From Candidatus Latescibacterota bacterium (GTDB lineage: Bacteria; Latescibacterota; UBA2968; UBA8231): DNA of 64,000 nt. How positions within the stretch are numbered: position 1 is the first letter of the stretch; each line of letters starts with the position of its first letter. Shown here piece after piece: positions 14,006-17,669 of the stretch. The stretch is taken from assembly GCA_965204725.1 (NCBI GenBank), contig OZ242005.1, forward strand, positions 448,001-512,000, given 5' to 3'. The notes beneath the pieces are model-generated. The model was given only the letters and a program-made list of their open reading frames with translations, searched no databases and had not been told where the DNA came from. Made by a program: the position numbers and the translations under genes.

Positions 14006-14659
14006 ATGCGCGGTCGGTCTGCTCTAATCGTCGGCAATGGGGAGCCGCCCAAGCGAGAATTATTCGCCGCTTGCGCCCAAGAAGCCGAGCTTATTCTGTG
14101 CGCCGATGGCGGGGCCAATACCGCCCGGCGCTATGGGTACGCGCCCGATTACACCGTCGGGGATCTCGACTCGATTACCCACCCGCTCGCCGCCGACCGC
14201 CTCGTCCTCGTCGATCCCTCCGGCCATCTGGGCACGGACGGCCAAAAGGTCCTCAACCACGCGGTCACCTTGGGCGTTACGCACGCCGTCCTCCTCGGTT
14301 TTACCGGGCGGCGCACCGATCACCTGCTGGGCAATTTGAGCCTGCTCAAGACCTTTGCTGACCGCCTCGCCTTGCGAATGGTTGACGACTACTGCGACAT
14401 CCGCCTCATCCATCGCGGCATCCGCTTTCGCGCTGCTATAGGCCAGAAAATTTCCCTGTGCCCACTCAACGGCGCGGCGACCGGCATCACCACCGAGGGG
14501 CTGAAATGGCCCTTGCAGTCCGAGAGCCTCATCCCAGGCGTCCGCGAAGGCATCTCCAACGAGGTGGTGGCTAGTCCGGTTGAAATTCGGGTGGAGGGCG
14601 GCGATCTGCTGTTGTGCGTACAGCGGGAGGAGGGTTGCGGCGCGATTATCTTGGAGTGA
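14006..14659 (+). CDS. thiN: Thiamine diphosphokinase
   Basis: CADGGAN, GDLDS, TD, GRRTDH, EGLKWPL, GISN. Confidence 0.93.
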   Translation: MRGRSALIVGNGEPPKRELFAACAQEAELILCADGGANTARRYGYAPDYTVGDLDSITHPLAADRLVLVDPSGHLGTDGQKVLNHAVTLGVTHAVLLGFTGRRTDHLLGNLSLLKTFADRLALRMVDDYCDIRLIHRGIRFRAAIGQKISLCPLNGAATGITTEGLKWPLQSESLIPGVREGISNEVVASPVEIRVEGGDLLLCVQREEGCGAIILE

Positions 14660-14691
14660 TTATATTCGTAAAAGCATTAGGACAGATAGCG

Positions 14692-15549
14692 ATGACCGAT
14701 ACATGCAAGAGCCGTAAAATGACAGGGAGACATAAGCCGCTACCAGAGTTTGCAAGCCCACCCGTCGTCGAAGTCGCTGTCTCGGTGCGGTTTGACGCGC
14801 CGGTCCTCGATGGTCCACTGATCGCGCTTAGATGGGGGCAGGTTCGAGATCGGTTCCCACTGCGTGAAGAGGCTTCTCCCCTAACCTCAACAATCGAGAC
14901 GTTCGGGGGGCCACAAGAGCCTCGGATCGAAATTCAGTTTAGTGGTATTTCTCCTACCCAACGGCTTTTGATGCTGAGCAGTTCTAAAACGAAACTATTG
15001 CAGATCCAAAAAGATCTATTCGGGTACAGTTGGCGAAAGCTCCAACCACAACATGAGTATCCGCGCTATGAGAAAATACGGAACGACTTCGAGTGCGAAC
15101 TCGCCAACTTCCAAACTTTTCTCTCGGCAGAAAGGCTCGAACATCTATCCTCGGTCCAATGTGAAATAACCTACGTCAACCTCATCTTGCCCGAAAAAAA
15201 TGTCTGGAGCAACCATTCGGAGTTGGGAAAAGTGATTCCTTCGGCGGAATCCCGCCTCACCGAAGGCTTTCTGCCACCGCCCGAGCAGACGAGATACGTT
15301 TCTCAATATGTCATTTCCGGCGAGGATGATATTCCTCAAGGCAGACTATATGTAAGCGTCGAACCAACTTACCACATGCCGGACAAGACGCCGATGTACC
15401 TGATGAAACTCACATTTCGAGGGGATCCCCAAGGCGATGGCCCGGATGGTATCATCAAGGCTATGGACCTTGGGCATGAGTGGATAGTCCAAGGGTTTGC
15501 CACGCTAACTTCGAGTAAGATGCACCGCGTTTGGAGGAGGACGAATTGA
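14692..15549 (+). CDS. TIGR04255-like family protein
   Basis: PLPEFASPPVVEVAVSVRF N-terminus, LLQIQ...YPRY, ITYVNLI, C-terminal HEWIVQGFATLT...W; start 14692 or 14719; AT-richer than flanks. Confidence 0.8.
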   Translation: MTDTCKSRKMTGRHKPLPEFASPPVVEVAVSVRFDAPVLDGPLIALRWGQVRDRFPLREEASPLTSTIETFGGPQEPRIEIQFSGISPTQRLLMLSSSKTKLLQIQKDLFGYSWRKLQPQHEYPRYEKIRNDFECELANFQTFLSAERLEHLSSVQCEITYVNLILPEKNVWSNHSELGKVIPSAESRLTEGFLPPPEQTRYVSQYVISGEDDIPQGRLYVSVEPTYHMPDKTPMYLMKLTFRGDPQGDGPDGIIKAMDLGHEWIVQGFATLTSSKMHRVWRRTN

Positions 15550-16073
15550 CAATTATCGCACCTAGCCCCACCCCGGAGGTACGGGAATGGTCCTTCTCAG
15601 ACAGTGCTACTTTCGATGATTTTCTAGGGGCTCCCTCTTTAGTGCCTACGAGTGAAACAATCTCCCCGCCCACCATTGAAATGGTAAGTGTTGAGGTGCG
15701 GCATAGTAGGAAACAAGAACCACACGCGATGGAATGGCTCTATCCCACGCTTCGTGCAATGGCCGCTCTGCCGTGGTGGACGGACAATTGGGGTTCCGGT
15801 GCTACGCGTACTCAAATTAGGGCGATGGCCGGTATGTTGGAGATATTGGTTGCGATTCTCGATAGCCAAGCTCCGCCTCCCGCTGTCGTGCCCACTTGGA
15901 ATGGAGGAGTACAAGTTGAGTGGCATCGCAGTGGCATTGACCTTGAGATCGAAGTGGATCCAGCGGGAAATATAGAGTACTTCTTTAAGAGTCCTGACGA
16001 AGAATGCGAAGGGCGAAGCAACGGCGATTTTAGTCAGTTGTCTGAGTATGCTCGGGCAGTGATTGAACGCTAG
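15531..16073 (+). CDS. Conserved hypothetical protein (DNW...PTWNGGVQVEW...LEIE motif), candidate antitoxin
   Basis: 180 aa, overlaps the upstream stop; acidic S/T/P-rich N-terminus and folded C-terminal domain; start uncertain. Confidence 0.7.
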   Translation: MEEDELTIIAPSPTPEVREWSFSDSATFDDFLGAPSLVPTSETISPPTIEMVSVEVRHSRKQEPHAMEWLYPTLRAMAALPWWTDNWGSGATRTQIRAMAGMLEILVAILDSQAPPPAVVPTWNGGVQVEWHRSGIDLEIEVDPAGNIEYFFKSPDEECEGRSNGDFSQLSEYARAVIER

Positions 16074-16094
16074 AAATCACTGCCCGAGTGAACG

Positions 16095-16469
16095 ATGGAA
16101 CTCGACGACGCCAGCATCAGCGACGATGAAGTCGTGCTCCGCCGCATCGCTGAGGATTTCGTTACTGACGATCAAAACCTCCAAAGGCTTCGGCCTTCAA
16201 CCCAAGCGTTCAAACAGGACGGCCCTGATGGACTCGTTTCCGTGTATCTGATTTCGGAGACCGAGCCAGCTACGGTTGCGGATGAGGGCCCAGAGAAATT
16301 CCTAGCCTCTATAAGAGTGGGTGTATTACGCGAGTTGGGATTAGGGGTAGTGCGCGATCCCTCGTCGGGTGGCCTTGGGCACTGCGTTATCACGGGCAGA
16401 AAGACTAAGGGAACGCTAAACCAGATCGTTCGCAAGGCCAAGTGGATCGACGGATACGCGCCGGCATAA
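16095..16469 (+). CDS. Small hypothetical protein, candidate ADP-ribosyltransferase-like (RES/Tse2-type) toxin
   Basis: 124 aa; VLRR...RPSTQAF...VSVY...VVRDP...GHCVI pattern. Confidence 0.6.
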   Translation: MELDDASISDDEVVLRRIAEDFVTDDQNLQRLRPSTQAFKQDGPDGLVSVYLISETEPATVADEGPEKFLASIRVGVLRELGLGVVRDPSSGGLGHCVITGRKTKGTLNQIVRKAKWIDGYAPA

Positions 16470-16564
16470 GCGAATTAGTGCATCCCGCCCCAGCTCCTGC
16501 TTTCCCCTCAACCCAAGCCAGCAAGAGCCTCATCCCGGGCGTACGCGACGGCATTTCCAACGAG

Positions 16565-17515
16565 TCAGGCTGAGCAGCGAGCACCCCCGAGGACGCAAAA
16601 TTGGGCGCAGTGCGGATGGTTGAGCTTGACCGGGTCCCAGGCTTCGGCTAGGGTCTGGCCCATCTCAAAGGCCGCGTCATAAGGCAGCAAGGTGCAGGCG
16701 AGCACGACCGGAGAATCCGCGCCCTTGCGCCGTACTACCATGCGCGACGAGGCGCACATGATGTCGTCGGGCGACCGGCCGAGGAGGGCCCAGCAGCCGG
16801 TGGTAATCTCGGGCACGTCAACCGAGGGGTCCATCTCTGGGAACAGCAGGAGTTGGCTGGGGTCGGTCGCGTCAATGCGGACGCCGAGCTCGGCGAAGAG
16901 CCGGGCGAAGCCAGCGCGCAGCTCGCCTTCTTCGCCGCCCCAGCGCGTGCGGCTGGCGACCGCTAGGCAAAAGCCGCAATCGGCGAGCCAGCGCAAGCCC
17001 TCAATCATCGGCGTCCAAGAGCGGTCGCCGCGCTCGGCCTCGTGCAGCACCGGATCGTAGTGGTCAATGGAGACGCGAATCGCCAGCCGGTCACCGTGCG
17101 CTTGGCGCAACCGCAGCAGGCCATCGGCGCACTTCATCATCGGCCGCATGGCGTTGGTCAGCACCAAGCTCTCAAAGCCTCGCTCCAGCACGGCCGCGAG
17201 CATGTCGAGCATCTCGGGATTCATAAAAGGCTCGCCGCCGGTGAAGCCAATCTGGCGAGTGCCCAGCCCGTTGCGCTCAATCTCGTCGAGGTACGCGGCG
17301 ACCTCCGCTGTCGTGAGGTACACCAAGCGGTCGTTGCGCGGGCTCGATTCGATGTAGCAGTTGGCACACGCTAGATTGCAGAGGGTGCCGGTGTTAAACC
17401 ACAAGGTTTCTAGCCGCGTCAACGCGACGCGAGCACGCTCCTCCCCGTCGGCGGTGACGTCCGGGTCTTGGAACTTGAGTGGGTCTAGGCCGGGCCGAGC
17501 TTGCACTTGCGTCAT
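16565..17515 (-). CDS. Radical SAM protein
   Basis: CNLACANC (CxxxCxxC), FTGGEPF, LTNA; Cys-rich C-terminus; GGAG RBS. Confidence 0.9.
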   Translation of the reverse strand: MTQVQARPGLDPLKFQDPDVTADGEERARVALTRLETLWFNTGTLCNLACANCYIESSPRNDRLVYLTTAEVAAYLDEIERNGLGTRQIGFTGGEPFMNPEMLDMLAAVLERGFESLVLTNAMRPMMKCADGLLRLRQAHGDRLAIRVSIDHYDPVLHEAERGDRSWTPMIEGLRWLADCGFCLAVASRTRWGGEEGELRAGFARLFAELGVRIDATDPSQLLLFPEMDPSVDVPEITTGCWALLGRSPDDIMCASSRMVVRRKGADSPVVLACTLLPYDAAFEMGQTLAEAWDPVKLNHPHCAQFCVLGGARCSA

Positions 17516-17669
17516 GGTGTCTCCGGTCTGGGCTGGTCCCCAAGGGGACGGGGAGGCGTCGTGCGGCTGTACAAAGAGTCAATAGCTCAATAGACTGTCA
17601 AGGCGGGCGGCTCTGGCGAAATTGGGGTGGGATGAGTAGGTTGTCTGCTATCTAGAAAGGAGAACCACC

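Follow-up and report, generated by a model that had tools for sequence, protein, structure and literature searches.

The closest described relative of the locus analyzed here is PDC-M32, a two-gene "phage defence candidate" of PADLOC-DB in which a partner protein of ~375 amino acids (PDC-M32A) comes first and an ADP-ribosyltransferase (ART)-like protein (PDC-M32B) follows at close spacing. Such candidates are defined by their embedding in R-M, BREX or DISARM loci, in a preprint whose main text never names PDC-M32 and whose supplementary tables may describe it (Payne et al. 2024, bioRxiv 10.1101/2024.01.29.577857); in the literature searched, PDC-M32 appears in a single paper, and there only as a PADLOC match in Sinorhizobium prophages. 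A second point of reference is provided by the toxin–antitoxin–chaperone (TAC) systems HigBAC and CmdTAC, which likewise have three parts and of which CmdTAC has an ART-type toxin. The chaperones of these systems are SecB-like and serve several toxin–antitoxin (TA) families. What they recognize in the ChAD element of the antitoxin are patterns of aromatic residues (bioRxiv 10.1101/2024.02.24.581848). In addition, the DarT–DarG, RES–Xre (MbcT–MbcA) and Tse2–Tsi2 pairs each place a small cytoplasmic ART-fold protein beside a neutralizing partner, and the Tpt1/KptA proteins form part of the H-H-h clade of ARTs. Finally, TIGR04255 is labeled in NCBIfam as "sporadically distributed" and of unknown function, and no mention of this family or its aliases was found in the literature searched.

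Our window, the whole stretch of 64,000 nucleotides from a Candidatus Latescibacterota bacterium that was analyzed, contains a low-GC islet of ~1.93 kb (14630–16562) that holds three intact co-oriented genes. Gene 1 (14692–15549, plus strand) encodes 285 amino acids from its ATG, with the longest open reading frame starting earlier, at a GTG at 14614; gene 2 (15531–16073, plus strand) was called as an open reading frame of 180 amino acids with a TTG start; and gene 3 (16095–16469, plus strand) encodes 124 amino acids. These coordinates give a 19-nt overlap between genes 1 and 2 and a 21-nt gap between genes 2 and 3, in agreement with the compact arrangement given in a preliminary description of this DNA. 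We consider the cassette most likely to be a candidate toxin–antitoxin or anti-phage module; the more specific reading, that the islet carries a putative three-gene conflict cassette with gene 3 as toxin, gene 2 as neutralizer and gene 1 as an add-on, has in our judgment about an even chance of being correct.

The GC content is 0.49–0.55 over 14600–16199, as compared to 0.62–0.68 in the flanks (400-nt windows). The upstream flank is a thiamin pyrophosphokinase gene (thiN, 14006–14659; PF04263 E 2.3e-18, PF04265 E 8.1e-12), with the insertion point at its 3′ end, and the downstream flank is a convergent radical SAM gene (16565–17515, minus strand; PF04055 E 1.1e-16). Within the genus, 18 sites lack the islet and 6 are occupied, and in 11 relatives with an empty site the nucleotide corresponding to window position 14629 is joined straight to 16563. 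In genomes without the trio, the match to the 654-nt thiamin pyrophosphokinase gene stops near nt 624 (window position 14629), whereas in trio-bearing genomes it covers nt 1–654; genome comparison thus marks the last 30 nt of this gene, including its stop codon (14630–14659, plus strand), as a replacement 3′ end supplied by the islet and as the left limit of the insertion. Repeat search and alignment further revealed a 41-nt direct repeat that brackets the islet, in two copies that are 90% identical and 2001 nt apart: the att-like left copy (14523–14563, plus strand) lies inside the thiamin pyrophosphokinase gene (codons ~173–186) at the left islet edge, and the right copy (16524–16564, plus strand), at the right edge, is the remnant of a duplicated fragment of the same gene and extends to the stop codon of the convergent radical SAM gene. 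In island-bearing relatives (L100), as much as 109 nt of the duplicated sequence is retained. A promoter and terminator scan of the locus stayed at chance level, with two promoter-like sites as compared to 1.4 expected, and one terminator-like site as compared to 2.4. In the tree, the Latescibacterota cassette clade is nested among Dehalococcoidia which, together with the GC dip, the empty and occupied sites and the direct repeat at the edges, indicates that the islet is mobile and sporadic. The islet is horizontally acquired, and the discrete AT-richer insertion between thiN and a radical SAM gene that had been described earlier is borne out by both the GC dip and the direct junctions in relatives without the islet.

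The predicted structure of gene 3 is confident (pLDDT 91.9, pTM 0.85), and ~45 of the best 50 VIA matches listed are, as judged from their titles, ART-superfamily proteins. The top matches are to KptA (9ld3, Z 7.4, rmsd 3.2, 89 residues), AvrPphF/HopF (Z 7.1), Tpt1 (7yw2, Z 6.0; 7kw9, Z 5.4) and Tse2 (Z 5.1), such that every match has Z ≤ 7.4, where a best Z of 7–8 is typical even of unrelated models. Further matches include DarT and RES/MbcT (which, with Tse2, span Z 5.1–3.2), Arr, and diphtheria-, pertussis- and cholera-type toxins. The top two Foldseek matches are from the same families as the VIA top (KptA and AvrPphF/HopF), with no Foldseek match at E ≤ 0.001. Taken with its weak matches (every Z < 8), the model suggests that gene 3 has a split β-sheet ART fold, and the structure check proposed in the preliminary description therefore came out in favor of the ART-like protein suggested there.

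The R…S…H pattern noted in the same description is also real and goes beyond chance: R16, S49 and H96 are the sole invariant columns in an alignment of 35 diverse members of the gene 3 superfamily, which comprises 983 clusters at 50% identity. These residues lie on strands 13–18, 48–52 and 96–100 of the model. ART triads sit on strands 1, 2 and 5, as stated in bioRxiv 10.1101/2020.07.21.169896, and R16, S49 and H96 follow the strand order of such triads (H-Y-[EDQ], R-S-E, H-H-h), a placement that is taken from strand order only and that has His as third residue, as compared to the catalytic Glu, Asp or Gln of classical ARTs. In the model, the three residues may be placed as an NAD+-binding triad, and gene 3 would be an NAD+-using, toxic protein. 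By sequence, gene 3 is not in the DarT, RES, MbcT or Tse2 families (the highest identity is to Tse2, 19% over 102 aligned residues), its R-S-H triad differs from the H-Y-E or R-E-S of DarT/RES/Tse2-type toxins, and its partner gene 2 is neither a macrodomain nor Xre- or Tsi2-like. Likewise, CmdT has no sequence relation to gene 3, and there is no Cmd match in PADLOC. The gene 3 family has no Pfam, NCBIfam or PDB entry; no sequence profile was found that links it to Pfam ART families or PDB sequences, Pfam and NCBIfam searches with distant superfamily members gave no useful match, and a PHROGs search with the cassette proteins returned nothing better than E 0.084. Gene 3 is acidic (pI 4.84, with family medians of 5.4–6.0), and thus the complementarity of a basic toxin and an acidic antitoxin is absent.

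The fact that the best fold matches are the NAD+-binding lobes of KptA/Tpt1 also fits a different reading, in which gene 3 is not a toxin but a Tpt1/KptA-like NAD+-dependent phosphotransferase or nucleic-acid end-modifier with a benign role in repair or modification, and gene 2 is its specificity or regulatory subunit. Tpt1, like gene 3, has no catalytic Glu, the acidic (rather than basic) character of gene 3 is consistent with such a role, and the top match in a viral structure library, in which nothing reached E ≤ 0.001, is a weak one to a putative RNA 2′-phosphotransferase (E 0.13). However, only the C-terminal lobe of Tpt1/KptA aligns (chain residues ~86–180), gene 3 has no counterpart of the N-terminal RNA-binding lobe that Tpt1 carries, gives no match to PF01885, and has conserved residues that differ from those of Tpt1/KptA. 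In addition, its family is sporadic, mobile and decaying, its tight coupling to a small partner is TA-like, and it is related to the defence candidate PDC-M32, all of which make a benign enzyme quite improbable.

The relationship to PDC-M32 is seen for gene 2 as well as for gene 3. In gene 2, it is the C-terminal domain that matches the PADLOC profile for PDC-M32A (PDLC04576) with E 1.2e-12 over profile positions 265–366 of 375, and in hhalign with 88.4% and E 2.8e-6 over 67 columns. Correspondingly, hhalign aligns the gene 3 superfamily with PDC-M32B (96.3%, E 1.6e-9) over 98 columns, the R, S and H motifs among them, and the distant members P0120 and P0169 match PDC-M32B with E 0.001 and E 0.006, respectively; gene 3 itself gave no match at E ≤ 1 in PADLOC, including the PDC-M32B model. 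These profile comparisons make the gene 2 C-terminal domain and gene 3 a distant relative of PDC-M32 (of the C-terminal domain of A, plus B), with the same gene order. The earlier characterization of the cassette as undescribed is thus accurate only in part: the pair has a relative in PADLOC, but PDC-M32 is itself only a prediction. The match of gene 2 to PDC-M32A is, moreover, not full-length. Gene 1 has no match to PDC-M32A, whose 260-residue N-terminal region is missing from this cassette and shows no relation to TIGR04255. The cassette, in turn, adds a separate TIGR04255 gene and a putative docking arm that PDC-M32 does not have, and its flanks are the thiamin pyrophosphokinase and radical SAM genes as compared to the R-M, BREX or DISARM setting on which the candidate status of PDC-M32 is based. 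We also considered whether genes 1 and 2 are a split PDC-M32A, and rejected this, as PDC-M32A proteins have no TIGR04255 match and hhalign of TIGR04255 with PDC-M32A gave only 0.2%.

Gene 2 consists of an acidic arm followed by a conserved domain, as had been noted before. The arm (residues 1–66; 15531–15728, plus strand), delimited by alignment and composition, is rich in Pro, Ser and Thr, carries the motif "EEDxxTTIxIxP...DSxTF", keeps conserved aromatic residues, and contains 13 D+E, 4 K+R, 8 P and 15 S+T, with a pI of 4.28. The C-terminal domain (residues ~67–180; 15729–16073, plus strand), delimited by the PADLOC profile and a survey of loci, is the universal partner of gene 3 and presumably an antitoxin or immunity domain; its "DNW...GGVQVEW" signature is conserved in 25 sequences. 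No enzymatic family was recognizable for this domain in Pfam, NCBIfam, PADLOC, PDB sequences or the ESM Atlas, the last of which returned unnamed clusters only, some with phage members. No longer, fused form of gene 2 was found among 989 candidates, which is weak evidence. A repeat search identified a perfect 14-bp inverted repeat (I3) with a 10-nt loop that covers the final part of the gene 2 coding sequence, stop codon included (16051–16088, plus strand), and ends 6 nt before the ATG of gene 3. The corresponding hairpin (−30.6 kcal/mol) has a z of −5.8 in the window as compared to 0.0 to −1.4 in the five closest relatives, and is missing from the Dehalococcoidia loci. It is lineage-specific and may be a coupling or occlusion hairpin; not being conserved outside the genus, it lies outside the design of the family.

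In a set of 26 loci from two phyla, which leaves out two partial Pseudanabaena matches (L027 and L028), the gene 2 C-terminal domain lies directly upstream of gene 3 in every case, with the two genes overlapping by at most 13 nt or lying at most 22 nt apart, whereas gene 1 is present in only 11 loci and absent from the other 15. For more distant members of the gene 3 superfamily, the same domain was found again by HMM at 17 of 28 distinct places in the phylum, where the two genes usually overlap by 7–13 nt, and its motif was recognized by eye at four further places. The conserved unit is therefore the pair of genes 2 and 3 and not the trio, contrary to the preliminary description, which had expected all three genes to be conserved together. 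As two small, adjacent, co-oriented genes that form a conserved pair, genes 2 and 3 have the generic layout of a type II toxin–antitoxin system. In three-chain complex predictions with gene 2 as the scored partner, we obtained scores of 0.79, 0.80 and 0.79, compared to 0.00 and 0.00 when this partner was replaced, and 0.80 when an unrelated protein took the place of gene 1; by the rule of the prediction tool, such a pattern speaks neither for nor against binding of any of the proteins.

Gene 3 is split across reading frames in three of the 26 loci, in which gene 2 (and gene 1, where present) gives a single full-length match, as well as at two of the places with distant members (G123 and G136), although such frameshifts could be assembly errors in metagenome-assembled genomes. 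A broken gene 3 beside an intact gene 2 would be tolerable if gene 3 is the toxin. It would be lethal were gene 3 the antidote, which bears on the opposite assignment, in which the ART-like gene 3 would be an enzymatic antitoxin and would modify either the effector, gene 2, or whatever that effector targets. Enzymatic antitoxins occur in other TA types, and gene 2 is both larger and more variable than gene 3; however, the downstream and smaller gene occupies the usual toxin slot, and the gene 2 C-terminal domain, as described above, belongs to no recognizable enzymatic family, such that we consider this reversal highly improbable.

Gene 1 was correctly assigned to TIGR04255 in the preliminary description: it gives a full-length match to the NCBIfam HMM (E 8.1e-18, 65.1 bits with a curated cut-off of 30, residues 20–281 against profile positions 2–251/252), a profile search of the genome returned the same match, and its ESM Atlas matches are only to TIGR04255 or unnamed clusters. 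Its model (pLDDT 86.3, pTM 0.85) is a two-repeat α+β saddle (a β-saddle, TBP/McsB-like), with fold matches to TBP, AdoMetDC, RepDE and the McsB/arginine-kinase catalytic domain, every one with Z < 8. The SecB-like chaperone that had been proposed for gene 1 is not supported: a Pfam search at E ≤ 1 assigned no family to any of the three proteins, and hence no SecB domain was found by sequence, and no SecB chain is among the Foldseek or VIA matches listed for the fold, an absence that does not exclude the SecB family. At 20 of 29 loci elsewhere, the TIGR04255 gene overlaps the gene that follows it, and the genes downstream belong to at least 12 BLAST-distinct, unrelated "middle" families.

The gene 2 arm occurs at all 11 loci that carry gene 1 and is lacking at all 15 that do not. 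On the tree, the distribution of gene 1 and the arm needs four changes, with at least two gains or losses forced by well-supported branches; the association is drawn from one gene family, in which independent events are few. This strict coupling would be unexpected of a passenger gene. It is also what would be expected if gene 1 were a dedicated chaperone that holds the arm of an aggregation-prone or protease-sensitive gene 2 antitoxin until a phage competitor frees gene 3, that is, if the SecB-TAC logic of HigBAC and CmdTAC had been built from unrelated parts. In both cases, an accessory protein tracks an extension on the middle protein and is common to unrelated downstream modules, and the acidic, Pro/Ser/Thr-rich arm with its conserved aromatic residues recalls the patterns read by TAC chaperones. 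We note, however, that a 285-residue two-repeat saddle takes the place of the SecB-like protein, that the arm is N-terminal whereas the ChAD is C-terminal, and that the gene order (accessory–antitoxin–toxin) differs from that of TAC systems. Furthermore, pairs without gene 1 are common (15 of 26 loci), and thus the antitoxin domain needs no chaperone. Overall, we regard a dedicated chaperone as unlikely.

The same observations bear on the possibility that the pair is a plain addiction or selfish module that stabilizes only the islet, with no role in phage defence and with gene 1 as a passenger or regulator. This would account for the small size of the islet, its lack of an integrase, its att-like repeats and its position at a hotspot, for the decaying copies of gene 3, and for the lack of any tblastn match to gene 3 in the phage and plasmid collections searched, and the neighbors of the cassette, both here and in the Dehalococcoidia loci, are housekeeping genes rather than a defence island. 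In contrast, the pair is homologous to PDC-M32, which is defined by its embedding in R-M, BREX or DISARM loci and whose canonical pairs adjoin type I R-M methylase-like genes in this phylum, and the coupling of gene 1 to the arm speaks against a passenger; we consider a purely selfish module unlikely.

In our preferred reading of the islet as a conflict cassette, the core would be the translationally linked pair of genes 2 and 3. Gene 3 would be a minimal ART-fold protein with Arg16, Ser49 and His96 placed, by sequence order, on the triad-bearing strands, and the C-terminal domain of gene 2 would be its obligate partner, most likely a neutralizer (antitoxin or immunity protein). Gene 1 is optional and, on the basis of its co-occurrence with the acidic arm, may dock there and either stabilize gene 2 or act as a trigger sensor. 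Loss or displacement of gene 2, upon infection or loss of the islet, would release gene 3, which could carry out an NAD+-dependent modification of a phosphate-bearing target, for example RNA or DNA ends, by analogy to Tpt1/KptA, or could alternatively consume NAD+; growth would stop in either case. The cassette may have a role in phage defence.

More broadly, it is possible, although in our view doubtful, that TIGR04255 is a new class of exchangeable β-saddle sensors or adaptors that steer many unrelated effector modules by way of a short docking arm at the N-terminus of a variable middle protein, giving a tripartite immunity analogous to SecB-TAC but made from unrelated parts, and that the gene 3 superfamily is a new clade of minimal Arg-Ser-His ART-fold toxins, whose chemistry possibly differs from that of Glu-dependent ARTs. 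As to the trigger in such a scheme, we can only speculate that the acidic arm, mimicking nucleic acid, fills the concave face of the saddle until phage nucleic acid or protein displaces it. The two-gene and three-gene forms, and the islet-bearing and empty sites within one genus, provide natural controls for such ideas. For PDC-M32, the comparison offers a concrete mechanistic hypothesis, that of an ART-like toxin with a partner domain, and for TIGR04255, a first structural and genomic hypothesis, that of a saddle-shaped accessory that an arm links to 12 or more different downstream modules. An arm-coupled TIGR04255 would extend the toxin–antitoxin–chaperone idea beyond SecB, and, if gene 3 is active, it and its relatives would make up a large family in which effectors with an ART fold reach their smallest size (~125 amino acids), with an Arg-Ser-His site that lacks the usual catalytic acid.

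The three open reading frames were recovered by an ORF scan as the preliminary description had given them. Gene 1 (285 aa) spans 14692-15549, gene 2 (180 aa, beginning with a TTG) 15531-16073 and gene 3 (124 aa) 16095-16469, such that genes 1 and 2 overlap by 19 nt and genes 2 and 3 are separated by 21 nt. The cassette has a GC content of 0.49-0.55, compared to 0.62-0.68 in its flanks, and lies between a thiamin pyrophosphokinase gene on its 5′ side and a convergent radical SAM gene on its 3′ side. A Pfam search returned no family for any of the three proteins. The longest ORF for gene 1 begins with a GTG at 14614, within the final 46 nt of the kinase gene; the ATG at 14692 is the likelier start, as the alignments of close relatives begin there. 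We also note a perfect 14-bp hairpin at 16051-16088 (-30.6 kcal/mol, z -5.8), which spans the stop codon of gene 2, reaches to 6 nt short of the start of gene 3, and could couple translation of gene 3 to that of gene 2. It is partly kept in the five closest relatives, and absent in Dehalococcoidia.

The cassette is a discrete insertion. The kinase gene is present in 29 of the 31 genomes of the genus, and sorting their loci by the state of the site yields six with the trio at the same position (the window's own genome, G000, and G123, G125, G130, G136 and G140), 11 with a clean empty site, where window nucleotides up to 14629 are joined directly to those from 16563 onward, two (G141 and G146) with a second copy of kinase nt ~518-624 3′ of the radical SAM gene, five from which the radical SAM gene is also missing, such that the kinase gene abuts window nt ~17602, and five too divergent to sort. 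The kinase gene match spans nt 1-654 in island-bearing genomes and extends only to ~nt 624 in the others, with the island-bearing genomes retaining a duplicate of kinase nt ~516-624 downstream. Taken together, the site comparison and these match lengths place the inserted DNA at ~14630-16562, which provides the kinase gene with a new 30-nt end and in which no integrase was found. A 41-nt direct repeat, with copies 90% identical, has its left copy inside the kinase gene (14523-14563) and its right copy running up to the stop codon of the radical SAM gene (16524-16564). The 3′ end of the kinase gene looks like an integration hotspot (window 14523-17603; loci L083, L085, L086, L088 and L091-L093).

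What is conserved as a unit is the pair of genes 2 and 3, not the trio. Gene 3 has 72 close relatives, and a scan of species-representative genomes gave 28 loci, of which two partial Pseudanabaena matches (38% identity, 56 residues) were dropped, leaving 5 from Latescibacterota and 21 from Dehalococcoidia. A gene 2-like C-domain is found directly upstream of gene 3 in all 26 loci, and gene 1 in only 11, with the pair standing alone in the other 15, flanked by varied housekeeping genes. Across the phylum, 28 distinct places carry a gene 3 superfamily member; at 17 an upstream gene 2-like domain is detected by HMM, mostly overlapping by 7-13 nt, while four more show the motif by eye, six have a different, longer architecture, and one is without a called ORF. 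Gene 3 is split between frames in three of the 26 loci (L008, L016 and L026), in which the neighboring genes are single full-length matches, and likewise in G123 and G136. This fits decay of a toxin gene, with assembly error a possible alternative. Separately, G123 has a stand-alone protein of 123 aa with a gene 2-like domain (L040:1483-1854), encoded next to a 489-aa type I R-M methylase-like gene on one side and a 233-aa gene downstream, with no gene 3-like partner seen within this 3-kb locus.

The AlphaFold2 model of gene 3 is confident (pLDDT 91.9, pTM 0.85). Foldseek returned no match to it at E 0.001 or better, its top two hits being AvrPphF/HopF (E 7.3e-3) and KptA. An independent all-against-all search (VIA) ranked KptA (Z 7.4), AvrPphF (7.1), Tpt1 (6.0/5.4) and Tse2 (5.1, 19% identity) highly, followed by CopC, Rhs ART tips, Scabin, SidE mART, DarT, NarE, RES, Arr, MbcT, and the pertussis and diphtheria toxins, such that about 45 of the 50 rows listed belong, judged by title, to the ART superfamily. 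As a VIA Z of 7-8 is a common best score, no single value is decisive, and it is the coherence of the match list that argues for a probable ART fold, in line with the initial assignment. Searching 1.84 billion representatives with a profile gave 983 clusters at E ≤0.001 (217 at ≤1e-10), nearly all of 120-145 aa, and ten distant members matched no Pfam or NCBIfam family. Across an alignment of 35 diverse superfamily members, just three residues never vary, R16, S49 and H96, the same three singled out in the preliminary description. In the model, they fall on strands 13-18, 48-52 and 96-100, in the order in which the ART triad is presented, from strands 1, 2 and 5 according to bioRxiv 10.1101/2020.07.21.169896. 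In space, they may be arranged like this triad.

Gene 2 residues 74-177 match the C-terminal part of PDC-M32A, the first gene of a PADLOC phage defence candidate (E 1.2e-12, positions 265-366 of 375). Full-length PDC-M32A genes (~375 aa), followed by a gene for a ~140-aa protein, also occur in the phylum, often adjoining type I R-M methylase-like genes. Profile-profile comparison links the gene 3 superfamily to the PDC-M32 B proteins of the phylum (96.3% probability, E 1.6e-9, 98 columns) and the gene 2 family to PDC-M32A (88.4%, E 2.8e-6, 67 columns). Gene 3 itself does not match the PADLOC PDC-M32B model; two of its distant relatives do (E 0.001 and 0.006). According to the source preprint (bioRxiv 10.1101/2024.01.29.577857), whose main text does not mention PDC-M32 by name, the PDC set comprises 145 candidate systems, inferred from their position inside BREX, DISARM or type I R-M loci. 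Several variants were also seen. At L039 (G108:C1:3011058-3012016), PDC-M32A is seemingly split into two ORFs, which cover profile positions 5-153 and 262-355 and belong to different frames or genes; a methylase-like gene precedes them and an intact B-like gene follows. The ORF that takes the place of PDC-M32B in G130 (L033:1004-1462, minus strand) begins B-like but then runs on as a DUF433 domain (E 1.6e-13), so that the partner gene here is either a chimera or a replacement. Outside the window, the window's own genome gives a second, weak PDC-M32A C-terminal match at G000:C1:52065-52208 (E 2.8e-4), in a 144-aa ORF, with similar weak matches in G082, G085 and G092.

Gene 1 is a TIGR04255 member, as first assigned (65.1 bits against a cut-off of 30). 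Its model (pLDDT 86.3) is a two-repeat alpha+beta saddle, for which Foldseek returned TBP, AdoMetDC, RepDE and McsB with high probability and TM-scores of only 0.24-0.30, and VIA the guanidino-kinase/McsB catalytic domain (Z 7.8-7.2), TBP (6.3) and RepDE (6.2). So few residues are conserved in the family (P24, E27, Y123, Y161 and F269) that a binding protein seems likelier than an enzyme. Gene 2 carries its acidic arm (pI 4.28, motif EEDxxTTIxIxP...DSxTF) at every one of the 11 loci that have gene 1, whereas the 15 loci lacking gene 1 all lack the arm. On the gene 2 C-domain tree, the gene 1 label needs four changes, at least two of them forced by well-supported branches (for example L004/L006, support 97/93); as kin share labels, this association is suggestive and does not amount to proof in the statistical sense.

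TIGR04255 occurs in 45 of the 168 genomes of the phylum, at 57 places, only eight of which adjoin a gene 2-like domain (by coordinates, one match being weak). In 20 of the best 29 loci where an ORF could be called, a gene on the same strand starts between 91 nt before and 3 nt after the TIGR04255 stop, and these downstream genes form 12 BLAST-distinct families. A variable third gene often follows, encoding a ~190-aa family, a DUF7689 protein (L061:2573-3151, E 8.9e-41), or weakly gene 3-like proteins. The ~190-aa family (185-193 aa; six loci, L041-L044, L048 and L053, and also L057/L058 and L065) shares a QG[DE][IV][LF]...C[DS][LI] look, matches no Pfam family, and may represent a further kind of effector in TIGR04255 cassettes.

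Of the toxin-antitoxin-chaperone cassette originally proposed, the ART call and the R/S/H residues stand, the trio is not the unit that is conserved, and a SecB-type chaperone is unsupported by sequence (no Pfam family for gene 1). The best-supported reading is of a mobile pair that resembles a toxin-antitoxin system, possibly one of abortive defence, and has a predicted ART-fold effector; modest fold scores, a His in place of the catalytic acid, an acidic gene 3 product and a housekeeping context count against it. In one lineage, this pair would have gained a TIGR04255 protein as an accessory, tethered via the gene 2 arm.
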